Positions 1,506-53,900 of a stretch of 64,000 bases of DNA are shown piece after piece; position 1 is the stretch's first letter, and every line of letters begins with the position of its first letter. The translations under genes were made by a program, and so were the position numbers. Source of the DNA: a plasmid. The stretch is from sequence record NZ_CP093377.1, one strand, 5' to 3'. The notes beneath the pieces are model-generated. The model saw nothing but the letters and a program-made list of their open reading frames with translations, did not search any database and was not told where the DNA came from.

Positions 1506-1507
1506 AC

Positions 1508-2170
1508 GTGCCGGACGGCCAGTATTCTTTCTATCTGCACAGCGACGATCGCACCGACATCGCGGCGATGGCGACCATCAGTACCATCTCACAGCCCCTG
1601 CGCGGTGACTTCATCCGGACCGCTGCCACCGCCGGGGCGGTGATGTACCAGACGGATGCCCGTTTACCGGCGCTGATCCCGGTGTTCTTTGACGGGCACC
1701 TGAGCGCCATCCGGCTTTGCGCCGTGATGGCTCTGGTATCCGGCACCTGGTCTTCACTCTCAGGACTTCCAGATGAGCCTGATGGTGGCGTGGCGGCTCT
1801 GGCCATGTCACCGGAGACGCAATACCAGCGCCGGCGTTACACCCTGACGCTTCAGGATGACCGGAGCAGTGAACGGGTTGAGCGTGTGCTGACGGGCGTG
1901 TCATCCCGCCTGCGTGGCGAGCTGCTGAGAAACCTGATTATCACCGGTCTGGCCCTGCATACGACCGCGCCGGAGCTGCCGCGTCTGCTGGCCAGCATGC
2001 CGGTACCGCCCGGCACGGTCAGCGAGCTGCAGGTTCTGGTTCAGCAGATGCCCGGTACGGCTGGCGTGAGTAAGGCTGCAGTACCGGAGAAACCAGCACA
2101 GCCTGCCGCACCGGTAACCGGTGACGCGACCAGGATAAAGAAAAATATGCAACGGGCATTCGGAGACTAG
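1508..2170 (+). CDS. stbB: StbB/ParR-like segregation adaptor protein
   Basis: 220-aa ORF immediately downstream of stbA in operon arrangement, as in R100/R1 stb/par loci. The C-terminus is Pro/Ala rich. Confidence 0.55.
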   Translation: MPDGQYSFYLHSDDRTDIAAMATISTISQPLRGDFIRTAATAGAVMYQTDARLPALIPVFFDGHLSAIRLCAVMALVSGTWSSLSGLPDEPDGGVAALAMSPETQYQRRRYTLTLQDDRSSERVERVLTGVSSRLRGELLRNLIITGLALHTTAPELPRLLASMPVPPGTVSELQVLVQQMPGTAGVSKAAVPEKPAQPAAPVTGDATRIKKNMQRAFGD

Positions 2171-2173
2171 AAC

Positions 2174-2437
2174 ATGTCAGTGATTAAACAGAAGGCAGAG
2201 CAGTGTATTCATACCTTTCTGCGCGCCCGGAACGTGCCCGAATCTCAGTGGCCGGAACGGGTCAAAAAGACCGGCAGGGGAATGATACTGGCAGGCGTGG
2301 CCGTCGTGGTTCCCGGCGTTCTGGTTGATAACATATCCCTGCCGGTGACAATCGCGATGCAGGTCTGCTATGCCTCGCTGATCGGCCTCGGGGTTCTCCT
2401 GGCTTTTGACGATAAAAAGCCGAAGAGCCGACCCTGA
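2174..2437 (+). CDS. small membrane protein (2 predicted transmembrane helices)
   Basis: 87-aa ORF starting 4 bp after the stbB stop, with hydrophobic stretches. Confidence 0.4.
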   Translation: MSVIKQKAEQCIHTFLRARNVPESQWPERVKKTGRGMILAGVAVVVPGVLVDNISLPVTIAMQVCYASLIGLGVLLAFDDKKPKSRP

Positions 2438-2580
2438 GCAAGAACATCATTCAGAATGGTAACCAGACAGCCAGGGAGGGACTGATGCAAAAGGTTAAGA
2501 GCGCAGGGCTGACGCTGGCGCGGCCAGCGAGCTGTTGAACTGTCAGGACATAAGGGAGATGAACACAATGAGGAAGACAA

Positions 2581-2847
2581 ATGAAGTGTAATACTGCAAT
2601 TTTGTTTGTGGCGCTCACACTGGCAATACCTGGTGCGGTGAATGCGGCAGCCACAGTGGCGGTTCTTGACCAGTTGGCCAAGCAAAAGCAAAAGGAACGT
2701 GAAGACCAGCTCGAAGCCGTGGAACGTGATGCTTTGGCACAGCCAGATGCATGGAAAGCGTATCTACAGGTGTCTGAGCAGTGCCTGCTGATGCTCCCAT
2801 CATGCTGCAAAACCGCTACCGCAGCCTCGCCATTTCACTGGCACTGA
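2581..2847 (+). CDS. small secreted protein with N-terminal signal peptide
   Basis: 88 aa. Signal peptide MKCNTAILFVALTLAIPGAVNA. AGGA ribosome-binding site upstream. Confidence 0.4.
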   Translation: MKCNTAILFVALTLAIPGAVNAAATVAVLDQLAKQKQKEREDQLEAVERDALAQPDAWKAYLQVSEQCLLMLPSCCKTATAASPFHWH

Positions 2848-2958
2848 AGGCTGCAATGGCCTGTTCCCCAGACGCCCTCAAGCTCCTCGGGCGTAACGAC
2901 GTGATAGAGTTTCGCGTACTCCGATCATCGTTAGTCTCAGCCTGCAGCACAGCTAAAT

Positions 2959-3103
2959 AAGAGAGCTGCTGAGAAACCTGATTATCACCGGTCTGGCCCT
3001 GCATACGACCGCGCCGGAGCTGCCGCGTCTGCTGGCCAGCATGCCGGTACCGCCCGGCACGGTCAGCGAGCTGCAGGTTCTGGTTCAGCAGATGGCCGGT
3101 ACG
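2959..3103. repeat. ~145-bp direct duplicate of the 3' end of stbB (copy of 1919..2063, one mismatch)
   Basis: Exact string match of gagctgctgagaaacctgattatcaccggtctggccctgcatacg...ctggttcagcagatg at both places. This explains the shared peptide in the reverse-strand ORFs 1901..2152 and 2816..3259. Confidence 0.9.
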
Positions 3104-3171
3104 GCTGGCGTTTAACGAGAAAAAACCAAAGGGGCGGGGATGAATATGAACATTAACCTGAAGGAAACAGT

Positions 3172-3375
3172 ATGAAGCTTGAAGAACTGTCAGGAGACGA
3201 ACGCACGCTGGTCGTTGTGGCACTGCAGGCGCTGCACCGTGAGAGACTGACCGCATCAAATGCCGTCTTTACGGTCTGTAGTCTGGCCGGAAAAAAGCAG
3301 CCGCCGGAAGATATTTTTGGGCTGCGTGAAGTTCAGGATGCGCTGAGACGTATCGGTGCTGCACCTGCGCGTTAA
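3172..3375 (+). CDS. hypothetical small protein
   Basis: 67-aa ORF with a GGAAAC-type ribosome-binding site region. Confidence 0.35.
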   Translation: MKLEELSGDERTLVVVALQALHRERLTASNAVFTVCSLAGKKQPPEDIFGLREVQDALRRIGAAPAR

Positions 3376-3534
3376 ATCCGGCCCCGTACACTTCAGAACT
3401 AAAAAACGGCAGGCTGATATCGTGTCCCTGCCGCCATACATTACCTCGTCCTTATCCTCTGCCTCCTCCTCCTGAATAAAAAGGAAGTCGTTTCTCTCCG
3501 CTTTATTGCCGCCAGCCGGCGGCGTGTTCAACGC

Positions 3535-3690
3535 CGTGCCTTCACGCTAACCCGGCCGCTGCGGTCGCAAGGGTTCACGTTGTCTCCGTCCTCACCCGTT
3601 CGCACCTTTCACGGTGCATTCAGCCCGTGAAAGGCTTGCGCTGCGGCTTGCGGCGTCGCCCCTGCGCCCTCCGCTCAGAGCCGGGTTTTT
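3535..3690. repeat. ~150-bp structured repeat, copy 1 (candidate single-strand promoter or ssi element) upstream of the methyltransferase gene
   Basis: Near-identical to 5270..5425. Contains a perfect 9-bp stem ctttcacgg / ccgtgaaag with an 11-nt loop and GC-rich flanks. Lies 50-60 bp upstream of an anti-restriction-type gene. Confidence 0.6.
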
Positions 3691-3739
3691 GTGGCGGCAC
3701 GGCGCAAGAGGGTGCCGCATATCAGAGAGGAGTGTGTCT

Positions 3740-4432
3740 ATGTCCCGTTTTATTCTGGGTGACTGCGTGCAGGTGATGTCCCGTTTTCCGGCGCGTGCCG
3801 TCGATTTTATTCTTACCGATCCGCCGTATCTGGTTGGCTATAAGGACCGTACCGGGCGCACCCTGGCCGGGGACAACTCTGCCGAATGGCTCCAGCCCGC
3901 CTGTCATGAAATGTACCGCGTGCTGAAAAATGACAGCCTCATGGTGAGTTTCTATGCCTGGAACCGCGCGGATCTGTTTCTGAATGCGTGGAAAACGGCC
4001 GGTTTCCGGGTGGTTGGCCATATCGTCTTTACCAAGAGCTACGCCTCAAAATCGACGTTCGTGGGTTACACGCACGAGAGCGCCTACCTGCTGGCTAAGG
4101 GGAGGCCGCAAACCCCGGACCGTCCCATCCCGGACGTGATCCCCTGGAAATACACGGGCAACCGACACCACCCGACGGAGAAGCCGGTGCAGAGCCTGCG
4201 ACCGCTGATTGAATCGCTCACGCGTCCCGGGGCCATTGTCCTTGACCCGTTCGCCGGCAGCGGCTCCACCTGCGTGGCCGCCGCCGAAGCCAGCCGCCGC
4301 TATATCGGGATCGAGATGCTTGAGGAGTACCACGCCGCCGGCGTCCGCCGTCTGGCACAGGTTGAACGGGCGAGAAGGATGCCGGCGGCCAATGACGGCG
4401 CGTTTTACCCTGACTGGCCGGAGGCAGCATGA
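3740..4432 (+). CDS. orphan N6-adenine/N4-cytosine DNA methyltransferase (beta-class; DPPY then FAGSGST)
   Basis: Motifs ILTDPPYLVG and LDPFAGSGSTCVAA. No adjacent restriction gene. Typical leading-region orphan methylase. Confidence 0.85.
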   Translation: MSRFILGDCVQVMSRFPARAVDFILTDPPYLVGYKDRTGRTLAGDNSAEWLQPACHEMYRVLKNDSLMVSFYAWNRADLFLNAWKTAGFRVVGHIVFTKSYASKSTFVGYTHESAYLLAKGRPQTPDRPIPDVIPWKYTGNRHHPTEKPVQSLRPLIESLTRPGAIVLDPFAGSGSTCVAAAEASRRYIGIEMLEEYHAAGVRRLAQVERARRMPAANDGAFYPDWPEAA

Positions 4433-4650
4433 ATTACCCGGGACTTGAACACCTGCGCGCGGACGTGGCCGCGCTCAGCAATGCCATGTGTGACGTGCGG
4501 ATGATGCTGAACCGCCTCGAATCACAGCACCGGCACGATGCGGCAACGCTTACCGAACGTATGGCTGCGCAGACTCTGCGCCGGATCAACACCCTGCTTC
4601 TGGAAGCCTACCGCGAAGCCCTGGTGCTGGACGAAACCTTTCAGGACTGA
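4429..4650 (+). CDS. hypothetical protein, translationally coupled to the methyltransferase (ATGA overlap)
   Basis: 73-aa ORF whose start overlaps the methyltransferase stop. Confidence 0.45.
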   Translation: MNYPGLEHLRADVAALSNAMCDVRMMLNRLESQHRHDAATLTERMAAQTLRRINTLLLEAYREALVLDETFQD

Positions 4651-4705
4651 CTGACCCTGCCGGGCTGATGCCCGGCCTGTAACCCCTTACAAGAGAGAAA
4701 AAACG

Positions 4706-5128
4706 ATGTACGGAACCCGCGAAGAACTTTGTGTACAGCTTGAAAACATGTTCACGTCTGACGAGCCCCTGGTCCTGCTGGTCTGGACGGAAGAGGGGAT
4801 AAGCGTGGCCTGCCGTGAAGCCCAGCCAGAACCGGACGGGGCTGAAATCCGGGAGGTGATGAAGGCGCTCGGCGAAATGAAAATGACGCAATACCGTCAG
4901 CAGGGGGTAAATAATCTGACCATTAGCGACCTTCTGACCCGTCAGCGCGAAGCGGCAAACCGTCAGGTGAGTGTTCCGGCGGTACTCCTGTCACGTGTCC
5001 TGCGTAACTATGAATGCGAGCTGGAAAACCGGATCGGTATGGCCTGGGAAGCCGGGCGGCAGGAGCCGGAATCCGTCAGGGATGAGCTGAATAACGTTCG
5101 CGCCCTACAGGAGACGCTGGCCGCCTGA
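4706..5128 (+). CDS. hypothetical leading-region protein
   Basis: 140-aa ORF with an AGAGAAAAAACG ribosome-binding site region. A terminator-like hairpin follows at 5131..5155. Confidence 0.5.
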   Translation: MYGTREELCVQLENMFTSDEPLVLLVWTEEGISVACREAQPEPDGAEIREVMKALGEMKMTQYRQQGVNNLTISDLLTRQREAANRQVSVPAVLLSRVLRNYECELENRIGMAWEAGRQEPESVRDELNNVRALQETLAA

Positions 5129-5269
5129 GAGAACGCCGGGGTAACGCCCCGGCAACCGGTGGCCATCCACTGCGAATAAGGATGTCAGTGCCTTCCGCTT
5201 TTATCCGCCGCCGCCCTCCGGGCTACGTCGGGACAATGAAACTCCCCTGAAGCTCCGTGCGGTGACGGC

Positions 5270-5425
5270 ATGCGCCGTGACTTCACTGTAGCCCGGCCGC
5301 ATCGGCCACAAGGGTTCGCTGACGCCTCCGTCCTCACCCGTTCGCACCCTTCACGGTGCATTCAGCCCGTGAAGGCTTTGCGCTGCGGCTTGCGGCGTCG
5401 CCCCTGTGTCCTCCGCTTTTCGCCG
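5270..5425. repeat. ~150-bp structured repeat, copy 2, upstream of klcA
   Basis: Same element as 3535..3690, with the same 9-bp stem hairpin. Confidence 0.6.
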
Positions 5426-5483
5426 GTCTGTCGTGTCGTCACGGCGATGCCGGAACCGAGAATATGTTAACCGTGGAGGATCT

Positions 5484-5912
5484 ATGAACCAGACCGTGAC
5501 CTGTGATGCTGTTCGTCTTGAGGGTGCGCAGCGCCTGACTTTCCTGCCTGATTTGTTTGGCGGCGATTTTATGACGTCCGAGGCATCCGTGTACGCCTAC
5601 GCCGGGCGTTACTGCCCTGAGTATCAGGGGGGATTCTGGCAGTTTTACCGGCTGCCGGAAGGCGGCGGATATATGGCACCTGACGTGGAGAGCCTGACCC
5701 TGTGCAATCGGGACAACTGGTTTGAGCAGACTGTCAGCGGGGAAGTGGCGGGGATCATCCTCACGGCACTGGTACTGAATCACCGGAGCTGGCACCACAG
5801 TAACCATGACCATGAGGAGCTGTGCCGCCACTTCTGCCGCCGTTATGAGCAGCTTATGGCATTTGCTGATACCCATCCGGAAAGCGCCACCATCTGGCGT
5901 GCCCTTGACTGA
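5484..5912 (+). CDS. klcA: KlcA/ArdB-family anti-restriction protein
   Basis: Strong similarity to RK2 KlcA and ArdB (LTFLPDLFGG, VYAYAGRYCPEYQGGFWQFYRLPEGGGYMAPD). The start is taken at MNQTVTCD. Confidence 0.8.
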   Translation: MNQTVTCDAVRLEGAQRLTFLPDLFGGDFMTSEASVYAYAGRYCPEYQGGFWQFYRLPEGGGYMAPDVESLTLCNRDNWFEQTVSGEVAGIILTALVLNHRSWHHSNHDHEELCRHFCRRYEQLMAFADTHPESATIWRALD

Positions 5913-5954
5913 CTGACCACGGGCGGCGATGCCGCCCGATTAAAGGATAAAAAC

Positions 5955-6152
5955 ATGCAACTGTCACCGGAAACCCGCAGCATCCTGCGCCAGTATAAAA
6001 CGCTCATCAACGAGCGACGTCGCGAATCAGGACTCAGCCCCGTAACAACAGCGAAAGTGCTGGATGAGATCTGCGAATCGGCTACCCGACAGTGTGCCGC
6101 CTATCTTTGCGGCCACTTCATTCTCCAGGGCGGCCAGGGGGATGGACAATAA
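5955..6152 (+). CDS. hypothetical small protein downstream of klcA
   Basis: 65-aa ORF. Confidence 0.4.
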   Translation: MQLSPETRSILRQYKTLINERRRESGLSPVTTAKVLDEICESATRQCAAYLCGHFILQGGQGDGQ

Positions 6153-6318
6153 ATAATCCGGGCGGGGCATAGGCGCCGCCTGTTCGCGCGCGAAAACCCT
6201 GTCATCCCTTCGGGCTGACGGGCGGCAAGGCCAGCGCCTGCGGCGCTGCCCCCTCCCGCCCTGATGTTAGCCCGGGGCAATGCAGATGAAAACCCTTGTG
6301 AGGGCAAATTGTCACGGA

Positions 6319-6369
6319 TACGGTCCTGCGTGGCGTGGCGTGGCGTGGCGTGGCGTGGCGTGGCGTGGC
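6319..6369. repeat. (GGCGT)n pentanucleotide tandem repeat, about 7-8 units
   Basis: tgcgtggcgtggcgtggcgtggcgtggcgtggcgtt read directly from the sequence. Confidence 0.9.
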
Positions 6370-6432
6370 GTTGTCGCCAGCTCTGAAACCCGATCAGCAA
6401 ATCCTCTGAAAACACCTGAATCCTTCTTCTGG

Positions 6433-6959
6433 CCCCCTTCGGCTCCCGGCCCGCGTGGCGGTCCGGTCGTCGAGCCCCACTCCGCCAGGTCGGCTGCTGA
6501 CGCACCCGCCGGGCTCCGCCGAACCCGCAGGCGGTTTCGGGCTGACGCTAGGGTCTGATGGCTGAGGTCAACCCCCTGGCTTGCACCGGCCGGAGGCCGG
6601 GCCGCCCTGACCGCGCCGGCGGAGCCGTCGCTTTAAGGCCGCCACGCCGTTCCGACGTGTCGGGTGCGTGCATCCTGTTCTCCCGGTGAGGCCATCCCCC
6701 GTGCGTCCTCACGCGGAGGGCTGCTTGTAGCACCGTCGTGTCGTCATCCGAAGGGTGAAATGCACGCCGCCAAAACTTTTTGCGTGCCGCAAAAACTTTT
6801 GTCTGCGCCCTTCTTCTGCCGCCCCGCCGTTGCTCCTTTTGCCCTTTGCCGCGAGAGAACTCACCAGGGAGATGGCCAACCATCACCACAGGAGAAAACC
6901 AGGATGCACACACAAAACGTCAACGTCAAAACCGCCGCTCAGGAATCTTCCAGGAAGAT
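6433..6959. repeat. leading-region long structured repeat, copy 1 (~530 bp; candidate Frpo/ssi-type single-strand promoter cassette supplying ribosome-binding site, ATG and first ~17 codons)
   Basis: >95% identical to 11690..12200 and 14911..15436. GC rich with many internal inverted repeats. Ends 55 nt into ORF 6904..7176. Confidence 0.8.
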
Positions 6960-7176
6960 GGGGGAAGAGCAAAACCCTGTTTCTGTCGCGCGTGAGTGGG
7001 TGGCTCAGGCCACTTCGCTGAAGGCGGGGGTCACCGTCACCCTGTCCGACGTTTCCCGATATGGCGACGTGCAGGTGGAGATCCGCACCAACGGAACGCT
7101 TAACTGGCGCGCCTGGTCGTTTGAACCGGATTTTCTTTTTGAACTGAAACGCAACCTGCAATACGTGCAGCTTTAA
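6904..7176 (+). CDS. hypothetical protein whose N-terminus (MHTQNVNVKTAAQES) is encoded by repeat copy 1
   Basis: AGGAGA ribosome-binding site 8 nt upstream of the ATG. 90 aa. Hairpin terminator-like structure at 7178..7200. Confidence 0.55.
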   Translation: MHTQNVNVKTAAQESSRKMGEEQNPVSVAREWVAQATSLKAGVTVTLSDVSRYGDVQVEIRTNGTLNWRAWSFEPDFLFELKRNLQYVQL

Positions 7177-7219
7177 CCGGAGGCCGGATGTCCGGCCTTA
7201 ACCCAGAGAAGGAGGAAAC

Positions 7220-7585
7220 ATGCAGAACCTTAACACCCGTCCGGCGACCCGTAAGGTCGGGCAGAGCACCGAAATCGTGAAGCTGCTGCGCATTCAGGCC
7301 AGCGACACCCACGTGGTCGAGTTTGACAACGTGGACACCCGTTTTAACGACTGCAACAACTGGCAGGTGATGGCAGGGGACAAACGTGTCCTGTTCAGCA
7401 ACCGCATGTATGAACGTTTTTCAGATGTGAAATCGGGGATTCTGGCAACGATCAACGTATGTGAAAACTGCGCCAGCGAAACGGATAAAGCGATGCTGGA
7501 AGGGGCAAAAGTCATGATGCAGGTACTCGACGGCTATCCGTCCTTTGCAGCACTGGCTGCACACCCGAAACGTATTACCGGTTAA
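7220..7585 (+). CDS. hypothetical leading-region protein
   Basis: 121-aa ORF with a GGAGGAAACATG ribosome-binding site. Confidence 0.55.
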   Translation: MQNLNTRPATRKVGQSTEIVKLLRIQASDTHVVEFDNVDTRFNDCNNWQVMAGDKRVLFSNRMYERFSDVKSGILATINVCENCASETDKAMLEGAKVMMQVLDGYPSFAALAAHPKRITG

Positions 7586-7652
7586 CCGGGTGCCGTGACC
7601 GGATCGCACTCCGGCCACGGCGGACCATCACTTAAACACAGGAGTAAAAATC

Positions 7653-9665
7653 ATGGCCACCACCAATACTACGGCAAAAAAACCTGCGAAATCCACCTCT
7701 GCGAAAAAGACAGCGGAGAAAATCGCGCAGACTACCGAGCAGAAGCTCGTTCAGCTGCTCGCTGATACGCCCGTGCAAATCTTCCCGTACTCCCGCCTGT
7801 CACGCACTGACTTAAACACGCGCATTATTCCGCATACCGATCAGGAAGTGGAAGAGATGGCAGACAGCATTCAGGCAATGGGCATCCTGCAAAACCTGAT
7901 CGGTGCAGAACTGCCGGACGGTACGATCGGCATTGTCGGCGGGGAAGGTCGCCGCAGGGGCACAGGCATTCTGGTGATGCGCGGTGTGCTCGATGCAGAC
8001 ACGCCGTTTGTTCCGGTGAAAGTCCTGCCCGTGGAGATGGCGGTGGCGGCCTCGATGATCGAGAACGGTCGACGTAAACACATGCATCCCGCCGAGCAGA
8101 TTATCGGTTTTCGTACCCTTCAGCAGGAAGGTAAAACGGCTTCTCAGATCGGCGCACTGATGGGCTATCACCCGCGCCACGTTCAGCGCTGCCTGAAACT
8201 GGCGAATCTTGCCCCCTCCCTGCTGGATGCGCTGGCGCGGGATGAAATCTCCCTTGAACAGTGTGAAGTCCTGACCCTTGCTGATACCCATGAGCGTCAG
8301 GAGCAGGTCTGGAAAGAGGCTGTTGTACAGTGGCGCGATCCTGCCGTACAGACCCTGCGCAAAATGGTGACCGACGACAAGATGGCCATCAGTCACCCGA
8401 TGTTTGAATTTGTGGGCGAGGAAGCCTATACCGCCGCTGGCGGTACGCTGACCGCCGACCTGTTCAGCGACAGGGACAGCACCTTTGCCGATGCGGCGCT
8501 GGTGAAATCCCTGCTGGCTGGCAAGCTCACCGTGCTTGCCGCCCGCCTTCAGCAGGAGCAGGGCTGGGGCTGGTCAGAATTCCGTATGACGGAACTCAGC
8601 CACAGCGGCGAGGACAGGGAACAGTACCGCTTTGCCATGCCGGAACCTGTTCTGACCGAAGATGAGCTGCAACGTATTAACGAGCTGGAAGATGCAATTG
8701 AAGGATGTATGGCGTATGACGACGAATACGAGCTTCAGCAGCAGATTGACGATATTCACTGCGAGGCGACTTATCGCGAAGCCACGCCGGAATTTCGCGC
8801 CGCGCACGGAATCTGGGTGTCATGGGATGGTGACAGTTTTCAGGTTCAGCCTGGTATCCGCAGGCTGACCGACGAAGACCGGGCAGCAGAAGAACAGGCG
8901 CGTCAGGAGCGTGAAAAGAACGTAATCAGACACACCACGCCTGACATTCCCGCTGACGCCTATCCGGCAACGCTGGTTAAGGCCATGTCTGCGGAGCGCA
9001 CTCTTGCCGTTCAGGCGGAACTGGCGGGTCGCCCCGATGTATCGGTGGCGCTCCTGACGTGGACGCTGTGTCTTGCGCTCTTTGATCGCACCTACGGTAA
9101 ACGCAGCGAACCGCTGAAAGCCTATGTGACCTCGAATCAGTATCACCTTGCATCACTGGCGCCTTCCGGTGAAACAGGGAAGGCGCTGACGGCGCTCAGG
9201 GCACAGAAAAAAGCGCTTCAGGCAACGCTGCCCGAAAACTGGCATCTCGATTTCACCTGGCTGCTGTCATGGTCAGCAGAGCAGGTGAACACCCTGCTGG
9301 GATTCTGTGCCGCGCACGGTATCAACGGTATTCAGGAACGTATGTATAACCATACGCAGAAAAGCGAACTGGACGGGCTGGAAGCGGCGCTGGACTTTGA
9401 CCTGCGCAAGTGGTGGCAACCGGGGGCTGAGAGCTACTTCGGCAAGCTCACGATTTCCCAGATTGGCAAAGCCTATGAAGAAGCCGGACTGAGTGCCCGT
9501 GCAGGTGAAGTTGTGAAGCTCAGGCGCCGCGATGCGGCAAAGGCCGCCGAACAGGATCTGAATGCTCAGGGCTGGCTGCCTGACTGGATGGTGCGCACAG
9601 CGCCAGCCGCTGAGGCTGAAGAAGCCACTGAATCCGACGCTGATATCACTGACCACGCTGCTTAA
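7653..9665 (+). CDS. ParB-nuclease-domain (ParB/Srx N-terminal) leading-region protein, 670 aa
   Basis: N-terminal ParB-like motifs (IPHTDQEVEEMADSIQAMGILQNLI, GGEGRRRG, helix-turn-helix region) and a long C-terminal extension. Conserved position upstream of psiB in F-like leading regions. Confidence 0.75.
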   Translation: MATTNTTAKKPAKSTSAKKTAEKIAQTTEQKLVQLLADTPVQIFPYSRLSRTDLNTRIIPHTDQEVEEMADSIQAMGILQNLIGAELPDGTIGIVGGEGRRRGTGILVMRGVLDADTPFVPVKVLPVEMAVAASMIENGRRKHMHPAEQIIGFRTLQQEGKTASQIGALMGYHPRHVQRCLKLANLAPSLLDALARDEISLEQCEVLTLADTHERQEQVWKEAVVQWRDPAVQTLRKMVTDDKMAISHPMFEFVGEEAYTAAGGTLTADLFSDRDSTFADAALVKSLLAGKLTVLAARLQQEQGWGWSEFRMTELSHSGEDREQYRFAMPEPVLTEDELQRINELEDAIEGCMAYDDEYELQQQIDDIHCEATYREATPEFRAAHGIWVSWDGDSFQVQPGIRRLTDEDRAAEEQARQEREKNVIRHTTPDIPADAYPATLVKAMSAERTLAVQAELAGRPDVSVALLTWTLCLALFDRTYGKRSEPLKAYVTSNQYHLASLAPSGETGKALTALRAQKKALQATLPENWHLDFTWLLSWSAEQVNTLLGFCAAHGINGIQERMYNHTQKSELDGLEAALDFDLRKWWQPGAESYFGKLTISQIGKAYEEAGLSARAGEVVKLRRRDAAKAAEQDLNAQGWLPDWMVRTAPAAEAEEATESDADITDHAA

Positions 9666-9702
9666 TACCAGAGGCCGCCGCCTTCGGGCGGCGGGAACAG
9701 AC

Positions 9703-10137
9703 ATGACCATGCAATATGACCTGAACCGAATCAACACCCTGACCGCCACAGACCTGGAGTTTATCCGTCAGCAGGGCGAGGACGCGCGCCGCGCCCTCAG
9801 CGATGCCGTGACCGGCCTCCTGTCGGCACCTGAAGGATGGCGCGTCTGCGCCGAGTTCCGCAGCGAGTTCGGCGATTTCTTCCCCGTCCAGTGCCGCTTC
9901 AGCGCGGACGGCAGTGATGACTGGCATCTGTGCGTGTGCAGCCCCGGCGAAGTCTCGCCTTACTGGCTTCTGGTGCTGCTCTCCTCCGGCGGTGAAGTGG
10001 TGCGTACCCTTTACCAGAGCGACACGCTACAGCCTGACCGGATAAACCAGCTGATCGCGCAGCTGGCAGGTATGCGCCGCTTTAACTGCACTGCCAGCAC
10101 CGTGGCGAACCTGATGAGCGGGGAGGTGACAGCATGA
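9703..10137 (+). CDS. psiB: PsiB, plasmid SOS inhibition protein B
   Basis: Alignable with F PsiB (EFGDFFPVQCRFS..HLCVCSPGEVS..WLLVLLSSGGE). Confidence 0.85.
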   Translation: MTMQYDLNRINTLTATDLEFIRQQGEDARRALSDAVTGLLSAPEGWRVCAEFRSEFGDFFPVQCRFSADGSDDWHLCVCSPGEVSPYWLLVLLSSGGEVVRTLYQSDTLQPDRINQLIAQLAGMRRFNCTASTVANLMSGEVTA

Positions 10138-10880
10138 TCCCGTCCTCACACGCGCTCGTTTCCCTGAAACCCGCCCGTCAGGCTGCAATACAGGCTATCA
10201 GCCATGTTGAGTCTGCCCGCGAACGCGGCGCACGACTGCCCGCCATGCCGTATGTGCGTACCTTTCTGCGCTTGCTCACGGGCAGCGGTCGCCTCAACGC
10301 CACGGTGGCCAGTAAAATACCTGGCCTGCACTGGGTGCCAGATAACCGTCATTCGAACCTGAAACAGGTCGAGGAGGCGCTTAACACGATGATCGCCACC
10401 AGTGGCGAAGCCTGCCCGCTGCCGCTCACGACTGACGTACAGGCCGAACTGTTCCCGGAAGTCATGCACACCCGCACGGGGCGACGGCTGCACAGATCCA
10501 GCATTAAGACCACGCGTCAGCTTCGCCGCCAGTCCCGTCAGTACGAACAGCGCTGGAAACTGCGCCAGAACCTGCTGGAGCAGGCGAAAATCGACCTGAA
10601 TTTTCAGTCACCGGAAACCGTCTGCACCTGGTACACCCGGTGGAGCGACGAGTTTGACGCGGCAGAGCTTGCCGGACCGTTCTGGCGCTGGCAGTCGCGG
10701 TTCGCGTCGCTGAAGGAACTTGACTGGCTTCGCATCAGCGGTGAGCCGCTGTATGCAGTGATGTACGAAATCCCGTTTATTGTCCGGGAAACACCTGAGC
10801 ATGTTCGTGTCGCTGAACGCTGGCAGGTGCCGAATAAGTTGCAAAATCAGCAGGGGGAAGGGGCGCATCAGAAGTCATGA
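10134..10880 (+). CDS. psiA: PsiA, plasmid SOS inhibition protein A
   Basis: 248-aa ORF coupled to psiB (ATGA overlap), with PsiA-like length and sequence. Confidence 0.75.
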   Translation: MIPSSHALVSLKPARQAAIQAISHVESARERGARLPAMPYVRTFLRLLTGSGRLNATVASKIPGLHWVPDNRHSNLKQVEEALNTMIATSGEACPLPLTTDVQAELFPEVMHTRTGRRLHRSSIKTTRQLRRQSRQYEQRWKLRQNLLEQAKIDLNFQSPETVCTWYTRWSDEFDAAELAGPFWRWQSRFASLKELDWLRISGEPLYAVMYEIPFIVRETPEHVRVAERWQVPNKLQNQQGEGAHQKS

Positions 10881-11029
10881 GGATATATACAGTTTTTGGA
10901 CTGTTATTCCTGGGCAGATGATCGACAACGGGATATAATGGCGATGGCGCTTGAGGCTTTTTGCCTCATGATGTGAAGGTGGTTTGTTGTCGTGTTGTGT
11001 GGCAGAAAGCAGAAAGCCCCGTAGTTAAT

Positions 11030-11100
11030 TTTCATTAACCCACGAGGCCCCCTGTATGTCTCAACAACAACAGTATGGCCTCTTACCGTGCTTAATGCAA
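11030..11100 (-). ncRNA. sok: Sok-like antisense RNA of the hok/mok locus (approximate)
   Basis: Position inferred from type-I toxin-antitoxin locus organisation, antisense to the mok start region. Not delimited from sequence alone. Confidence 0.35.
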
Positions 11101-11271
11101 GGAGGAGTAAACCATGAAACTGCCGCGAAGTACCGTTATCTGGTGCGTACTGATAGTGTGTCTCACACTGCTGATATTCACTTACCTGACGCGAAAATCG
11201 CTTTGCGAAATTCGCCTGAGGGACGGACAACGGGAGGTCGCTGCAATTCTGGCTTACGAATCCAACGGTAA
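11056..11271 (+). CDS. mok: Mok, modulator of killing (overlapping reading frame needed for hok translation)
   Basis: 71-aa ORF overlapping hok in the +1 frame and ending 4 nt before the hok stop. Confidence 0.6.
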
Positions 11272-11275
11272 GTAG
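11114..11275 (+). CDS. hok: Hok/FlmA-family type-I toxin
   Basis: [53 protein letters not shown] is near-identical to Hok/FlmA. Confidence 0.9.
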
Positions 11276-11285
11276 CAACCTGGAG

Positions 11286-11306
11286 GCGGGGGAAACCCCG
11301 CCTTTT
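11286..11306 (+). terminator. rho-independent terminator / hok mRNA 3' fold-back element
   Basis: ggcgggg-gaaa-ccccgcc followed by tttt. Confidence 0.6.
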
Positions 11307-11605
11307 CAGGGCTGAGTTGCTCTGACATACCTGAAGCGCCTTTATGAAGGGGTTGCCGGTTCGCCGTCAGCCCCTTTTTCCTTCCCGACGCGACCGCACG
11401 CCTGAACCTCCGGGAAGGGCTGTTCCCCTGCGGGGAACGGGGGAAGGGGGACGCGCCTCCGGCGCTGCCCCTCTGCTCCCTCTGCCTGAGCCTCCCTCCT
11501 GCCTGTCCTGCCTGATTTTGTTGAATTCGAAACTCCGTGAGCTACCTGCTCATACCTGGCTTCGGCCTGGTGTGCCCGATGTTCTTTAGCCTGTGCGTCA
11601 TATCC

Positions 11606-12200
11606 GGCGTCCTGCCGGTTAACTTTCGCATCTGCAGCTGTATGGCCATAACCCGAAAACAGGGCAGGGCGATGGCCCCCTTCGGCTCCCGGCCAGCGCT
11701 GCTGTCCGGTCGTCAAGCCCCACTCCGCCAGGGCGGCTGCTGCGCACCCGCCAGGCTCCGCCGAACCCCTCCGGGTTTCGGGCTGACGCTAGGGTCTGAT
11801 GGCTGAGGTCAACCCCCTGGCTTGCACCGGCCGGAGGCCGGGCCGCCCTGACCGCGCCGGCGGAGCCGTCGCTTTAAGGCCGCCACGCCGTTCCGACGTG
11901 TCGGGTGTGTGCATCCTGTTCTCCCGGTGAGGCCATCCCCCGTGCGTCCTCACGCGGAGGGCTGCTTGTAGCACCGTCGTGTCGTCATCCGAAGGGTGAA
12001 ATGCACTCCGCCAAAACTTTTTGCGTGCCGCAAAAACTTTTGTCTGCGCCCTTCTCCTGCCGCCCCGCCGTTGCTCCTTTTGCCCTTTGCCGCGAGAGAA
12101 CTCACCAGGGAGATGGACAACCATCACCACAGGAGAAAACCAGGATGCACACACAAAACGTCAACGTCAAAACCGCCGCTCCCGAATCTTCCAGGAAGAT
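11606..12200. repeat. leading-region long structured repeat, copy 2
   Basis: Homologous to copies 1 and 3. Weaker homology to the copy-3 upstream region extends back to about 11370. Confidence 0.8.
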
Positions 12201-12459
12201 AGAGGGAAAAACCGTGTCGTACACGATCCTCGTCGCTGAGCAGAAAAAAAACTCAGCGGAGGAACCTGATGTTCTGGAGTTCAGCAGCCTGGCTGAGCTG
12301 AAGAAACTGCGCAGACGCTGCCCCGAAACGATGCGCTGCACCTATTTCTACGCCCTCAGCAGCGGCGTCGATAAACAGTTCCGCCATATCCATGTGGCTG
12401 AAGCTGACCACTTCAAACAGTTTGTGCGCCTGATCGCGCGCGCAGGTATCGACATTTAA
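12145..12459 (+). CDS. hypothetical protein with repeat-encoded N-terminus (MHTQNVNVKTAAPES)
   Basis: 104-aa ORF with the same ribosome-binding site and ATG context as 6904 and 15382. Confidence 0.55.
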   Translation: MHTQNVNVKTAAPESSRKIEGKTVSYTILVAEQKKNSAEEPDVLEFSSLAELKKLRRRCPETMRCTYFYALSSGVDKQFRHIHVAEADHFKQFVRLIARAGIDI

Positions 12460-12520
12460 ATCCGGTTTCACCCCGTGCGGCAGCCGCCGCCCGGAACTTA
12501 ATCAGACAGGAGCCAGAAGC

Positions 12521-12727
12521 TTGAGCGTTAACACCCCGACCGCAAAGGCCCGTTACGAAAATGGGCATATGTCAGACCCTGAGCCTAAAACAGCCTCTCT
12601 CATTGCGATTTATGGCAATGAGGTGAGCTATGCATGGAACGTTCTGGAGGATTTGAAAGCTGCAGGTGCTTCTTATACCCGCAGAAACATTATCGCCGAT
12701 ATGTTCCGCCGTCTGGGTGTTCAGTAA
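12521..12727 (+). CDS. hypothetical small protein (TTG start, N-terminus MSVNTPTA)
   Basis: 68-aa ORF. Its 5' region including the ribosome-binding site is duplicated at 12770..12830. Confidence 0.4.
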   Translation: MSVNTPTAKARYENGHMSDPEPKTASLIAIYGNEVSYAWNVLEDLKAAGASYTRRNIIADMFRRLGVQ

Positions 12728-12804
12728 CCCGGACTTACCTCTGACCCGATGCGGTGCTGTATAGCAGGTACCGCTCGGAACTGAATCAAACAGGAGCCTG
12801 AAAG

Positions 12805-13266
12805 ATGAACGTTAACACCCCGACCGCTGCACCAATGGCCTTTTTCGTTCCGTCTCATAACGCCGTTTATGACCGCGCAACCCGGCTGGAAGGGCAGTGG
12901 GTGACTCAGCGTGAAGCGATAACGCTGGAAGCCCTGCGCCGTTTCTATCCGGATGCGGAGCTGATCCCCGCGACTCTGGTTCAGGAAAAGCAGAATGAAG
13001 GCTATCGCCGTCCCTGGGTGGAAATCACCGAGGCCCGGTACATCGACCAGCTGGAAACGCTGCCGCCAGTGGACTGGTGCAGAGGGTATGGCGGGGAGTC
13101 GTTCAAATCGATGGAGTTTACGGGCGGGGATGTGACCGCAATTTTCGTCCGGTACGGCGCGCGTTTCTTTGAGTGCCATGACCTGCACACCCGCCATCAC
13201 CGGGAGCTGATTGGCGACGTGATCACCCGTTTCTGTCTCGATGCGCCGCTGAATTCCGCGCATTAA
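12805..13266 (+). CDS. hypothetical leading-region protein (N-terminus MNVNTPTA, paralogous 5' end to the previous ORF)
   Basis: 153-aa ORF with ribosome-binding site. A bidirectional hairpin terminator follows at 13268..13292. Confidence 0.55.
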   Translation: MNVNTPTAAPMAFFVPSHNAVYDRATRLEGQWVTQREAITLEALRRFYPDAELIPATLVQEKQNEGYRRPWVEITEARYIDQLETLPPVDWCRGYGGESFKSMEFTGGDVTAIFVRYGARFFECHDLHTRHHRELIGDVITRFCLDAPLNSAH

Positions 13267-13353
13267 AAAAGCAGGGTTGCCCCTGCTTTCTCAACGCCGG
13301 GTAGCCGCTGTAACGGTGAACCGGCAATCACAACCAAAGTAAGGAGATTGATC

Positions 13354-13500
13354 GTGAAATTTGACCCGCAAACTGTAAAACAGGCTGAGGCATTTGTAAA
13401 TGCCCTCCGCGCCGGAAAACGTGCACACATGCCCGCGCTGCGTTTCGGCCAGTGGCAGCAATTTATGACCACCGTTTACGCTGGTCTGGGGCTGGCATAA
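13354..13500 (+). CDS. small hypothetical protein (GTG start, 48 aa)
   Basis: AAGGAG ribosome-binding site 9 nt upstream of the GTG. Below the 60-aa cutoff of the ORF track. Confidence 0.3.
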   Translation: MKFDPQTVKQAEAFVNALRAGKRAHMPALRFGQWQQFMTTVYAGLGLA

Positions 13501-13540
13501 CAGGAGGCGGCCGCCTGCGGGCGGCCGGTAAGGAGAAACC

Positions 13541-14318
13541 ATGTCACAACTGAGTTTTGAATCCCTGTTCCTGGCAGACCAGACCGAACCGCAGCCGCGG
13601 GTTTCCGCTCCTGTCCGGGTATTGTCGCCAGCTGAGGCGCGTAAGCAGTTCGCCAGTGTATTCCGCCAGACTGCGAGATATATGCACCGTTCCGAAGTGT
13701 TCCTTGCTGCCAGTGGGCTGGATATGGCGCGCATACACACGCCAGAAAACATCGAAAACAGCCGACGCATCTGCGAACGGTATCAGCCAGACGATTTAGA
13801 CGCCATGAGGCATCTGTTCTGCCTGTTGGTGGAGGGGCTGGCGGGTGAAATGCATGATTTCCTCGGCGCTCTGTATATGGAGCATGAGCTGGGCGCGGAC
13901 GAAATGGGGCAGTATTTCTCGCCGTCCTCCATCTCCCGCCTGCTGGCCGGGCTACTCATGCCCGGCGCTCAGGAGACGATAAAGCGTGAGGGGGGGGATG
14001 ACGCTCGATGAACCCGCCTGTGGCAGCGCCGGTATGGTCATTGCCTTTGCTTACTGGATGGCTGAAGCGGGACTGAATCCATCTGAACAGCTGTATGCGA
14101 CCTGCACTGATATCGATCCGATGGTGGCAGATATGGCCTTTATCCAGCTGTCACTGCTGGGTATCCCCGCGAAAGTCGTGACCGGTAATACGCTGACTCT
14201 GAAAGCAAATCGCGTGCGTTATACCCCCGTGTATTACTTCAATGACTGGCAGGGACGTCTGGAGTTCCGCAGCCGTTTCGAAGCGATGAAAAACTTTCTG
14301 GCCACCGTGGCCGCCTGA
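13541..14318 (+). pseudogene. HsdM/N6-methyltransferase-like gene interrupted by a +1 frameshift at a G8 tract (13990..13997). It lacks the catalytic NPPY/F motif even when the frame is restored.
   Basis: ORF 13541..14011 carries GQYFSPSSISRLLAGLL (motif-X-like). ORF 13986..14318 in the next frame carries LDEPACGSAGMVIAF (motif-I-like) and an HsdM-like downstream helix. Removing one G would fuse them into one ~260-aa protein. Confidence 0.5.
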
Positions 14319-14359
14319 CTGACAGAGCGGCAGGGCAGACCTGCCGCAGGGAGATAAAA

Positions 14360-14695
14360 ATGACAAGCAACACACTGAACGCTGTTCCGGCGACCGTGCT
14401 GGAGACCATGGCAGAACGCCTCAACGGCCAGCCTGAACCGCTAAAAATCCGCAACAACGACGATCACGCTGCACTGGCTGCAGATGTGCTCTGGCAGTTT
14501 GCCCGAAAAACCGGGCTGAACAGGGAAAGCGAGAGCGTGCAAACTGTCATCACTGATTTTCTGGCCAATCTTCTGCACCTGTGCGAACAGTGCGATCCTG
14601 ACGGGGCAGGTATCGACGGATTTAATGCCCTGCTGAATATGGCCATGATGCATTATGAGCAGGAAAACGGAGGCGACAGCGAAGAACCAGTTTGA
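14360..14695 (+). CDS. hypothetical leading-region protein
   Basis: 111-aa ORF with a GGGAGATAAAAATG ribosome-binding site. Confidence 0.5.
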   Translation: MTSNTLNAVPATVLETMAERLNGQPEPLKIRNNDDHAALAADVLWQFARKTGLNRESESVQTVITDFLANLLHLCEQCDPDGAGIDGFNALLNMAMMHYEQENGGDSEEPV

Positions 14696-14839
14696 TCGGG
14701 AGTCTGTGCCCTGGTGGATGCCATCAGGGCAACCGCAAAAAAACGCTTCCCCTTAGGGGAAACGGGGAGGGCGAAAGCGCCTCCGGCGCTCCTGCCATTC
14801 CCCGCTACCGTACTTCTCTCCTTACCTGCCTTCAGAACC

Positions 14840-15436
14840 GGCGTCCTGCTGGTTAACTTTCTCAGCTGCAGCTTTGTTATGGCCATAACCCGAAAGCAGG
14901 GCAGGGCGATGGCCCCCTTCGGCTCCCGGCCCGCGTGGCGGTCCGGTCGTCAAGCCCCACTCCGCCAGGGCGGTTGCTGACGCACCCGCCGGGCTCCGCC
15001 GAACCCCTTCGGGTTTCGGGCTGACGCTAGGGTCTGATGGCTGAGGTCAACCCCCGGGCTTGCACCGGCCGGAGGCCGGGCCGCCCTGACCGCGCCGGCG
15101 GAGCCGTCGCTTTAAGGCCGCCACGCCGTTCCGACGTGTCGGGTGCGTGCATCCTGTTCACCCGGTGAGGCCATCCCCCGTGCGTCCTCACGCGGAGGGC
15201 TGGTCGTAGCACCGTCGTGTCGTCATCCGAAGGGTGAAATGCACGCCGCCAAAACTTTTTGCGTGCCGCAAAAACTTTTGGCGGCGCCCTTCTCCTGCCG
15301 CCCCGCCGTCGCTCCTTTGCCCTTTGCCGCGAGAGAACTCACCAGGGAGATGGCCAACCATCACCACAGGAGAAAACCAGGATGCACACACGAAACGTCA
15401 ACGTCAAAACCGCCGCTCAAGAATCTACCGGAAGAT
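14840..15436. repeat. leading-region long structured repeat, copy 3
   Basis: Homologous to copies 1 and 2. Ends 55 nt into ORF 15382..15675. Confidence 0.8.
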
Positions 15437-15675
15437 GTGATTCAAACCTCACCACGTCCCAGTTCACGGATCTGTTTTGCTGGGTCCTGGCAGCATCGGA
15501 AGGGGAGCCACAACCGGCAATTTTTACGCCGCCAGAGAATGCCACTGAGCTGACGTTAATTAATGACGAATGCCCGGATTATATCTCTGTCTGGGTTGTG
15601 GATGGTCGCCCGGTGGCAGCTGCAATGCCGCTGGATAATTTTCACCGCGTTATTCCTTCATCATTTGCTAAATAA
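15382..15675 (+). CDS. hypothetical protein with repeat-encoded N-terminus (MHTRNVNVKTAAQES)
   Basis: 97-aa ORF. Its stop lies 16 bp before the DUF932 gene start. Confidence 0.55.
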   Translation: MHTRNVNVKTAAQESTGRCDSNLTTSQFTDLFCWVLAASEGEPQPAIFTPPENATELTLINDECPDYISVWVVDGRPVAAAMPLDNFHRVIPSSFAK

Positions 15676-15691
15676 TCAGGAGTAAATAAAA

Positions 15692-16513
15692 ATGGTCAGT
15701 TTCGCAAGCCGCTATCGTATGCCTTCCTCGATCCGTAAAGACCGTCCGCTGACGAATGAGGAATTACAGCTCATCGTTCCGAGCGCGTTCTCATCGGATA
15801 AACACGATTCACGCTCTGAACGTTATACATATATCCCGACCATAAACATTCTTGACCGTTTACGTGATGAAGGGTTTCAGCCGTATTATGCAACGCAGTC
15901 ACGCACACGTGACCAGGATAAACGCGAATTTACAAAACATATGCTTCGCCTGCGTCGTCATGACCAGATTAACGGGAAAGAAGTACCGGAAATTATTCTG
16001 CTGAATAGCCATGATGGTTCAAGCAGCTATAAAATGATCCCCGGTATGTTCCGTCAGGTTTGCAGTAATGGTCTGGTTGCATGGAAGGATTTTGGTGAAA
16101 TCCGCGTACCCCACAAAGGGGATATTGTCGGGCAGGTTATTGAAGGCGCTTACACGGTGCTGAAAACATTTGACGCGGTTGATGAAAATATTGACCTCAT
16201 GAAAAGCATTCAGCTCACTTTGCCTGAGCAGCGCCTTTTTGGTGCGACCGCACTGGAACTTAAGTACGATGGAAAACCAGCGCCGATTACGCCGGAGCAA
16301 ATTATTAACCCCCGCCGGGTACTCGACAGAGGCCAGGATTTATGGACCACGTTTAACGTGGTACAGGAAAATGTGATCCGTGGGGGGATTCGTGGCAGAA
16401 CGCAAAAAGGGAAGGTGACCAGAACGCGGGAAGTCACCGGAATTGATGGTGACATCAAATTAAATCAGGTGCTCTGGAAAATGGCGGAGGAGTTTGCAAA
16501 ACTTAAGGCCTGA
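15692..16513 (+). CDS. DUF932-family protein (conserved leading-region protein of conjugative elements)
   Basis: 273 aa. Family recognised from sequence memory (PTINILDRLRDEGF..., LLNSHDGSSSYK). Shares a bidirectional terminator at 16519..16543 with the convergent gene. Confidence 0.65.
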   Translation: MVSFASRYRMPSSIRKDRPLTNEELQLIVPSAFSSDKHDSRSERYTYIPTINILDRLRDEGFQPYYATQSRTRDQDKREFTKHMLRLRRHDQINGKEVPEIILLNSHDGSSSYKMIPGMFRQVCSNGLVAWKDFGEIRVPHKGDIVGQVIEGAYTVLKTFDAVDENIDLMKSIQLTLPEQRLFGATALELKYDGKPAPITPEQIINPRRVLDRGQDLWTTFNVVQENVIRGGIRGRTQKGKVTRTREVTGIDGDIKLNQVLWKMAEEFAKLKA

Positions 16514-17099: not shown

Positions 17100-17679
17100 A
17101 ATACACGGGCTCTGGAGAGTCGCCTTAAAAAATACCCCGGCGGATCGTCGTAATCAAGTTAATTCACTACAAACGCGCGTGAGCGCTCTCCTGAAGGGAT
17201 TTAACACCCGTCCGAAATAAACATGTCAGAGCAGTAGACGGTATTAACACGCCGCTCTTTACTAACCCTTTAAAACATCACACCCCACGCAAGACTTCGT
17301 CTTGCAGATTTTTTCTTTAAATTCAGTGGCATGATGTGTGTTTTATTTCGTAATTTTTGAGTATGCGCGCTTAAGGTGTGTGGATTGACACACATTGCAG
17401 TGCTTAATCAGGCACTGCAATGTGTGCTAATACAGCACTCTGAAGTGTGGGGATTGTGTGTATTCAATTAATAGAGTAACTTAAAAGTAGATGGTGCCTG
17501 AACCACACACATCATAGTGCCTAATGCACACACATCATAGTGCCTGATTAGCACACATCTTTAGGGATGGATTAGATATAAAATCAGTTGGTTACCATAA
17601 CACAGCACCACTGACAGTTGTTAAAGCTCGCCATTGCAGTGCCGCATCAGGCACTGCATTAGAATATCGAGAAATTATT
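17100..17679. other. oriT region. Contains inverted repeats at 17393..17425 and 17636..17668 (TraM-binding-site-like) and two tandem 22-bp direct repeats at 17503..17548.
   Basis: AT-rich intergenic region between the gene-X-like gene and traM. Palindromes cattgcagtgcttaatcaggcactgcaatg and attgcagtgccgcatcaggcactgcatt. Direct repeat cacacacatcatagtgcct[a/g]a. The nic site could not be pinned down from sequence. Confidence 0.55.
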
Positions 17680-53880: not shown

Positions 53881-53900
53881 CCTGTGAAGGATTATAACGC

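Follow-up and report, generated by a model that had tools for sequence, protein, structure and literature searches.

Repeats resembling Frpo/ssi single-strand promoters appear to supply the translation start of three unrelated genes in an IncF-type leading region

We analyzed a 64,000-nucleotide stretch of plasmid DNA (sequence record NZ_CP093377.1), here called the window, in which three copies of a repeat precede three unrelated genes of an IncF-type leading region. From homology, synteny, and strand-specific structure we conclude that the repeats belong to class 1 of the single-strand promoters, the Frpo/ssi type. Our reading, to which we assign a probability of about 0.65, is that they are the plasmid's own variants of this class and that their conserved element includes the translation start of the gene behind it. 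By homology, the repeats would be active as promoters on single-stranded DNA (ssDNA); the position of the transcription start and the translation of the leader peptide we infer.

Results

Repeat copies and their shared start region

The three copies are direct repeats, and their 531-nt cores are 95.1–95.9% identical in pairwise comparisons. Copies 2 and 3, taken with an upstream extension (from 11598 and 14832), are 94% identical over 609 alignment columns. The G+C content of the cores is 65–66.5%; that of the leading region is 57.6%, and the window as a whole has 54.8%. An earlier reading of the window made from its letters alone (the sequence-only reading) had described three GC-rich copies of more than 95% identity with a microsatellite just upstream of copy 1, and we recovered both, the latter as (GCGTG)8.8. 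It had also taken the reverse-strand open reading frames (ORFs) in the repeats for translation artefacts. Copies 1 and 2 contain such ORFs of 121 aa (6548–6913 and 11789–12154), and in copy 3 a 1-nt indel breaks the frame into 61 and 67 aa, which fits an artefact. The copies are 95–96% identical within the plasmid, while identity between plasmids is 75–93%, indicating concerted evolution.

The homology spans AGGAGAAAACCAGG-ATG (ATG at 6904, 12145, and 15382) and ends 54–57 nt inside each downstream ORF. All three ORFs start with MHT[QR]NVNVKTAA[QP]ES and have 15–18 N-terminal residues in common, and the bodies of ORF1, ORF2, and ORF3 fall into separate blastp clusters. The claim that three unrelated proteins receive a common ribosome-binding site (RBS), ATG, and N terminus was thus borne out. 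The NCBI pipeline (PGAP) calls the identical three ATGs in a 96%-identical Enterobacter plasmid. A Pfam/NCBIfam search found no domain covering the leader and no family for ORF2 and ORF3. ORF1 has a further in-frame ATG at 6958, exactly where the repeat ends; a start there would give 72 aa, the usual length of a DUF905 protein (F YfjA has 77 aa), an indication that the leader was added to a start that the gene already had.

A second, shorter common start region was seen at the genes at 12521 and 12805 (64 nt at 83% identity; 12480–12543 and 12764–12827). The shared stretch covers 8 initial codons together with the start codon and the RBS ACAGGAGCC. The gene at 12521 has a TTG start and begins MSVNTPTA..., and that at 12805 begins MNVNTPTA...; this start peptide resembles the main leader (NV.T.A) and the start of F YgeA.

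Hairpin on the transferred strand

In each copy, the transferred strand is predicted to fold into an imperfect hairpin of ~250 nt with smaller hairpins on its 3' side. For copy 1, the fold has a ΔG of −169 kcal/mol over 551 nt and a z score of −10.5 against dinucleotide shuffles, and copy 2 has a z score of −7.2. Hence, the repeats are not a chance feature. In the basal stem of copy 1, nucleotides 6664–6690 are paired with the RBS, the ATG, and codons 2–4 at 6890–6915, the complement of which forms the 5' side of the stem. A conserved bulge, GTGCATTTCACCC (sense GGGTGAAATGCAC), is located at 6753–6765.

We assessed covariation in an alignment of 56 copies of less than 93% identity, obtained by a DNA-pattern scan of species-representative genomes, with the structure of copy 1 as the reference. 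Standard pairs were formed in 76% of the cells, compared with 40–48% when the partners were slid by 1–3 columns. Double changes were found in 414 cells compared with 127–191 after sliding, and none of 500 column shuffles reached the observed value. Pairing in the basal helix bearing the start codon reached 93%. Codon 2 begins with A (for Asn) or C (for His), and this base covaries with a partner in the distal arm ~225 nt away (UA 28, GC 22); the base preceding the ATG forms three types of pair with the distal arm (CG 15, GC 15, UA 13). We also compared the folding energies of the two strands using DNA parameters. The transferred strand was more stable than the sense strand in all 55 copies, by 13.3 kcal/mol on average, while composition-preserving shuffles gave 3.8 ± 2.9 kcal/mol and none of 330 reached the observed difference. 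This result argues against the hairpin being primarily a structure of the sense mRNA. A fold of the transferred strand was among the checks proposed in the sequence-only reading, and it proved to be stable, covarying, and strand specific.

The hairpin apex occurs in three interchangeable forms on one conserved base (alignment columns ~196–275; e.g. L027, L029, L045, L055, L064, and L079 compared with the window). The form present in the window is AAAAGTTTTTGC...GCAAAAAGTTTTG, the second is short (GCGCCGC(A/T)...GGCG), and the third contains a long insert (CGTCACCGCAGGCCGCAGCGCAAGCGAGC...GCGAACGGGCGAGG) resembling a class 2 element. In copy 1, the apex at 6777–6805 together with CTTTTGTCTG scores as similar to an intrinsic terminator on the plus strand, with a similar site in mirror image on the other strand, and copies 2 and 3 have it in the same place. 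Judged by its sequence, this site might prevent read-through while the plasmid is double stranded; it is absent from subfamilies whose apex is of another type.

Constraint on the leader

The leader comprises ~18–20 aa with the consensus M[HN]T[QR]NV(NV)0-2[KN]TA[AT]xESSERW[GV]. Over leader nucleotides 22–63, conservation is 0.82, 0.82, and 0.80 at codon positions 1, 2, and 3. Intact ORFs read the conserved terminal motif AAGATGGGG in either of two frames, giving ...ERWG in 45 and ...RKMG in 15 unique copies; the small palindrome varies by 1 nt in its loop, which accounts for the shift. The hexamer AACGTC, which reads TTGACG on the transferred strand, occurs one to three times per leader and encodes NV, NVNV, or NVNINV. 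The DNA of F Frpo reads QNVKTAAPETQKMMG in one frame without an ATG, a likeness that we regard as a relic of the leader. The equal conservation of codon positions, the two frames, the variable number of hexamers, the dependence of residue 2 on stem pairing, and the non-coding copy in F together show that the leader is conserved as nucleic acid. Most simply, the leader peptide would be a by-product, translated since initiation uses the ATG that the element carries, and it probably lacks a function of its own. As for the earlier proposal that the repeats standardize translation initiation, the shared leader is better explained as a by-product of nucleotide constraint than as a device evolved for that purpose.

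Occurrence in other enterobacteria

The pattern scan returned 94 stretches, and with the window and two annotated plasmids we obtained 109 genuine leader instances from ~25 genera. The genera include Enterobacter, Klebsiella, Raoultella, Citrobacter, Kluyvera, Kosakonia, Leclercia, Lelliottia, Cedecea, Serratia, Rahnella, Yersinia, Hafnia, Pantoea, Mixta, and Erwinia, and Salmonella arizonae and others were also found. The frame of the leader remained open for at least 40 codons past the leader in 96% of 104 cases, compared with 26% and 18% for the other two frames. A Shine-Dalgarno (SD)-like motif lies 4–12 nt 5' of the ATG in 97 of 98 unique copies. When hairpin cores were located independently of the leader, 65 of 69 were followed by it.

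The bodies behind the leader belong to at least 19 unrelated blastp clusters, including ArdB/KlcA-type antirestriction proteins, DUF4942, DUF5983, and DUF905, and many have no Pfam family. Three proteins that are leaderless in the window carry the leader elsewhere, namely the product of the antirestriction gene at 5481–5912, the 68-aa protein encoded at 12521–12727, and the DUF1419-like protein encoded at 12805–13266. In such comparisons, homology between leader-borne and leaderless bodies begins immediately past the leader. A Serratia plasmid has three leader genes of its own. The idea of a modular expression-leader cassette, put forward for the three genes of the window, is borne out far outside it by this range of families and genera, the retained frame, and the existence of the same bodies with and without a leader.

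A contig of Rahnella inusitata (L058:5835-6234) encodes an intact leader, MHTQNVKTAAPESSERWG..., at the start of a 114-aa ORF, and its upstream DNA shows no relation to the hairpin, so a leader need not be attached to an Frpo-like structure. The same contig contains four leader genes in 6.9 kb.

Position in the leading region and promoter evidence

Genes of the region encode an ArdB/KlcA-type antirestriction protein, a DUF1380 protein, a ParB-like protein, PsiB, PsiA, and a DNA methylase, and it includes a hok/sok locus (Rfam sok). These are followed by the ORF273/DUF932 gene (15692–16513), a lytic transglycosylase (SLT) gene on the opposite strand, and TraM. A nic-like site on the minus strand indicates that the minus strand is transferred, that the leading region enters first, and that the minus strand is the template of all plus-strand genes. 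The long plus-strand ORFs from ~530 to 16513 are all directed at this nic sequence, in agreement with the claim that the leading-region genes point towards oriT. All three repeats precede plus-strand genes, and the gene order is that of F, in which Frpo1 lies before ygeA-ORF273 and Frpo2 before ssb-yfjA-parB-psiB-psiA, flanking a hok/sok-type locus; the copies in the window occupy like positions.

A MAFFT alignment placed the copies from the window, a copy from Serratia, F Frpo1 and Frpo2, and ColIb ssi1 in collinear order, with shared blocks at the 5' end (CCCCCATC...GCGGTTTTGACGTTTTG), in the middle of the stem, at the apex (AAAAGTTTTTGC...GCAAAAAGTTTTG), and at the bulge (GTGCATTTCACCC). 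With blastn, the repeats matched the candidate elements Frpo* 5–7 (Salmonella enterica AAEPNF010000010.1) at 72.6–80.3% identity over 277–402 nt, including the SD region. The sequence-only reading had named alignment to F Frpo and ColIb ssi as a check, and these results agree with its proposal.

Both Frpo1 and Frpo2 must be present for early expression in F transconjugants, in which YgeA is produced early (PMC9849209), and for pESBL the start sites of class 1 have been mapped (PMC12672017). No double-strand sigma-70 promoter was predicted in 6200–7250, around copy 1. The sole recurrent box match across the family was TTGACG-17-CAT(C/G)CT, present in 20 of the 56 copies. In F, the TTGACG boxes lie in the lower stem. 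In the window family they lie inside leader codons, and by a consensus scan the boxes proposed for F do not appear to be conserved in the window family. The view that the repeats fit an Frpo/ssi-type role is supported by their position, the collinear alignment, and the covarying fold of the transferred strand, while promoter activity itself is deduced from homology.

Several observations weigh against our reading. The blastn similarity to the validated F and ColIb elements is minimal: F ssiD gave a 27-nt match only, in the segment containing TTGACG, with E values of 1e-6 to 5e-4. The collinearity rests on the MAFFT alignment, which has a mean column identity of 61%. A consensus scan of both hairpin arms found no conserved canonical −35/−10 pair at a spacing of 16–19 nt, and the TTGACG boxes of the leader are weakly paired across the family (51–73% of cells). 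Since a match to the first 20 nt of the leader was a condition of the pattern scan, the conservation of this part, including one TTGACG box, cannot be judged from the set. Departures of the G:T and A:C types numbered 352 and 238 in the raw count and 121 and 97 after correction for reference bias, and the corrected values favor the transferred strand only slightly. Finally, Frpo* 5–7, the closest published relatives of the repeats, were taken by Samuel et al. (2024) only as upstream sequence up to the start codon and were ranked as low-certainty, since the boxes in them are unlike those of known Frpo.

Other features of the window

The coordinates of the repeats, hairpins, start regions, and associated features are collected in Table 1. 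In a scan of the window against Rfam, no family matched the repeats, and only sok (10945–11116) and PK-repBA (53812–53933) reached the gathering score. The PK-repBA pseudoknot scored 93 bits and marks a repA control region of the IncFII type. Two overlapping ORFs, 13541–14011 and 13986–14318, make up the N-6 DNA methylase gene. It is a single gene of 792 nt in the related Enterobacter plasmid, and the split here is a frameshift or a sequencing error.

A different long hairpin lies on the minus strand at ~5150–5460, 5' of the ArdB/KlcA-type antirestriction gene. Its ΔG is −91 kcal/mol on the transferred and −77 kcal/mol on the sense strand (z = −4.3). By eye, it has the blocks CAGGGGCG.ACGC.GCAAGCCGCA, GAACGGGTGAG, and CCGGGCTACAGTGA in common with Frpo*3 and Frpo'4 of Samuel et al., and from these blocks it is probably a class 2 element of the F Frpo3/ssp2 type.

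Table 1. Coordinates of the repeats and associated features in the window (nt, nucleotides; aa, amino acids)
Feature	Position	Strand	Description
Microsatellite (GCGTG)8.8	6328–6371	.	Just 5' of copy 1, replacing the extra ~70 nt of copies 2 and 3
Repeat copy 1	6430–6960	− (transferred = functional strand)	531-nt core; repeat search, MAFFT; fold z = −10.5
Main hairpin, copy 1	6664–6915	−	Apex 6777–6795; predicted fold and covariation
Translation-initiation region and leader, copy 1	6890–6960	+	SD AGGAG, ATG 6904
ORF1 (90 aa)	6904–7176	+	Leader and DUF905 (YfjA-like) body
(AACGTC)2, copy 1	6916–6933		TTGACG boxes of the transferred strand; within leader
Terminal palindrome ATCTTCCAGGAAGAT, copy 1	6945–6959		End of leader region
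Repeat copy 2	11598–12201	−	Core 11671–12201 and ~70 nt common only to copies 2 and 3; fold z = −7.2
Main hairpin, copy 2	11905–12156	−	Apex 12018–12036; predicted fold
Translation-initiation region and leader, copy 2	12131–12201	+	ATG 12145
ORF2 (104 aa)	12145–12459	+	Leader and YgeA-like body (homologue of F YgeA)
Repeat copy 3	14832–15438	−	Core 14908–15438 and ~70 nt common only to copies 2 and 3; repeat search, MAFFT
Main hairpin, copy 3	15143–15393	−	Apex 15256–15274; by identity with copies 1 and 2
Translation-initiation region and leader, copy 3	15368–15438	+	ATG 15382
ORF3 (97 aa)	15382–15675	+	Leader and unnamed family; directly 5' of the ORF273/DUF932 gene (15692–16513)
F-like oriT nic sequence GCGTGGGGTGT/GATG	17271–17290	−	Sequence match; TraM/SLT context in related Enterobacter plasmid

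Discussion

We propose that after nicking at oriT, the minus strand would enter the recipient 5' end first, and each repeat on the entering strand would fold into the ~250-nt imperfect hairpin with its smaller flanking hairpins. To judge by its homology with F Frpo, host RNA polymerase would start within the hairpin structure and transcribe towards oriT, so that the downstream genes would be expressed early and transiently, until the complementary strand is made. The lineage is distinguished by a conserved element that extends past the start of the gene: the SD, the ATG, and codons 2–4 make up one side of the basal stem, and the next ~15 codons correspond to the 5'-terminal segment of F Frpo, including its TTGACG box. 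Since the element carries its own ATG, the gene directly behind it would be translated from this ATG and its product would be a leader fusion. Recombination between copies may then have provided a common socket for different leading-region genes, including anti-restriction genes.

The pairing of the start codon would also be expected if the hairpin acted in the sense mRNA, as a structure in the 5' untranslated region that hides the RBS and ATG and tunes translation or stability behind ordinary upstream promoters. The RBS, the ATG, and codons 2–4 are paired with covariation, as a translational lock would be, the ATG is almost always paired in RNA folds, and the corrected count of G:T and A:C departures is mildly asymmetric. 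We nevertheless consider a role in the mRNA unlikely. The sense strand is the less stable one in every copy compared, far past the effect of composition, no double-strand promoter is predicted upstream, and the element is homologous and syntenic to F Frpo, a validated single-strand promoter. Moreover, no 5' end clearly freed the RBS in RNA folds, and a simple lock-and-release mechanism is therefore unsupported. A 'double lock', with RBS and ATG locked in read-through mRNA and free in internally initiated mRNA, also found no support, as RNA folds keep the ATG mostly paired whatever the 5' end. That the ~20-aa leader is instead a functional tag of early proteins, for degradation, localization, or secretion, with the repeat kept partly to encode it, appears rather improbable to us. 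The retained frame, the good conservation of the first 12 residues, and the related start (MSTRNIHVNTAS) of the early-made F YgeA would agree with such a tag. However, third codon positions are not relaxed, the 3' motif is read as ERWG or RKMG, the number of NV units varies, and the choice of His or Asn at residue 2 follows a base ~225 nt away. F Frpo1 and Frpo2 keep the same DNA without an ATG, and the same protein families work leaderless elsewhere.

Two further explanations would remove either the shared start or the expression role. If the shared ATG were unused and the true starts lay 3' of the repeat, the common N terminus would be an annotation artefact; the normal 72-aa DUF905 protein obtainable from ATG 6958 of ORF1 is in line with this, and the PGAP choice of start is itself a prediction only. 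We regard this as very unlikely, because the frame is held through the junction in 96% of the cases compared with 18–26% for the other frames, the SD-like motif is well placed in 97 of 98 copies despite lying in the most variable stretch of the element, and close to the junction ORF2 and ORF3 lack an ATG. Hardly any credence goes to the view that the repeats are scars of recombination or gene conversion, or a non-autonomous mobile element, with no role in expression and with their identity due to recent duplication. Concerted evolution of the copies speaks for recombination between them, and Frpo repeats are documented crossover points (PMC3817090). Mere scars would not account for an architecture, covariation, and strand-specific folding that are held across ~25 genera, always directly 5' of, and in frame with, a gene templated by the transferred strand, and the alignment of the copy ends showed no terminal inverted repeats or target duplications.

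Our preferred reading of the repeats as class 1 single-strand promoter variants with a built-in translation start can be extended to a more speculative model, which we hold only tentatively. In a universal socket of enterobacterial leading regions, formed by the hairpin base with the RBS, the ATG, and the leader, the DNA would be both a part of the single-strand promoter, with TTGACG in codons 5–9 as the −35 side as in F Frpo, and the translation start, and the promoter would thus lie partly downstream of its own start codon. Recombination inside the socket would swap the gene and the apex module, and the leader would tag the complete set of proteins expressed from ssDNA upon entry.

Conjugative plasmids rely on early expression from the incoming single strand to bring anti-restriction, anti-SOS, and other anti-defence proteins into play, and outside F and IncI1 plasmids the set of early genes is mostly guesswork. 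If our reading is true, the nucleotide-conserved leader of 20 codons would be a simple marker for genes wired directly to an Frpo-type element, usable in Klebsiella, Enterobacter, Serratia, Pantoea, and many further genera. At least 19 mostly uncharacterized families are already singled out by it, in addition to ArdB/KlcA-type, DUF4942, DUF5983, and DUF905 proteins. A DNA structure could then dictate the N termini of proteins, which matters for annotation and for expressing these proteins leaderless, and a known mechanism would be extended to many clinically relevant plasmids.

Comparison with known systems

The repeats resemble F Frpo and ColIb ssi in being dispersed direct repeats that form a long imperfect hairpin on the transferred strand. 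The F repeat unit is ~607 nt long and the copies in the window are 531–609 nt, so their size of 0.53–0.6 kb is ordinary. The difference lies at the gene-proximal end. In F, repeat homology stops ~25 nt short of the ssb and ygeA ATGs, with no common RBS or ATG, whereas the conserved element of the window family takes in the RBS, the ATG, and ~18 codons, and its basal stem contains the ATG. The N terminus of F YgeA, MSTRNIHVNTAS, is related to the leader of the window. At the gene-proximal end of both Frpo repeats of F (NC_002483; 6600–6646 and 11990–12036), an ATGATG opens a short frame. The frame of Frpo1 encodes MMGAENQREEKAG and stops within an ATGA overlapping the ygeA start, and that of Frpo2 runs in frame into ssb; these short frames may reflect translational coupling or chance.

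The Frpo* 5–7 candidates are members of one family with the repeats of the window. The passages on Frpo* in the accessible part of Samuel et al. (2024) do not mention a leader, pairing of the ATG, the range of fused genes, or strand-specific folding. Our literature search found no prior account of a stem-embedded start codon, a nucleotide-constrained leader, its spread over gene families, or strand-specific folding, and such accounts may exist outside the literature searched. The ssDNA promoters of classes 2 and 3 (pESBL klcA/ardA, M.EcoGIX; F Frpo3/ssp2) likewise have long transferred-strand hairpins 5' of leading-region operons. They belong to other sequence families, and a shared leader is unreported for them in the literature searched; some leader-bearing elements in other genera have an apex module that resembles class 2.

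The CUP repeats of the IncN plasmids pKM101 and R46 are similar in arrangement, with a repeated cassette of ~0.4 kb before leading-region genes (ardA, ardB, ccg) and co-ordinated expression, but they act via a repressor on double-stranded DNA. The repeats of the window gave no blastn match to R46, and a tblastn search found no ArdK or ArdR in the window. We rejected CUP as a precedent for shared start codons: the R46 repeats have no common ATG or leader and end 12–15 nt before each ATG, and the RBS, ATG, and N termini are specific to each gene. In R46 (minus strand, 23211 and 24551), ccgAI and ardA both start with MT.(V/I)TTPS encoded by similar DNA, a faint echo of a shared start. F Frpo1 and Frpo2 and ColIb ssi are the closest known systems, followed by the Frpo* candidates, and CUP is a functional analogue.

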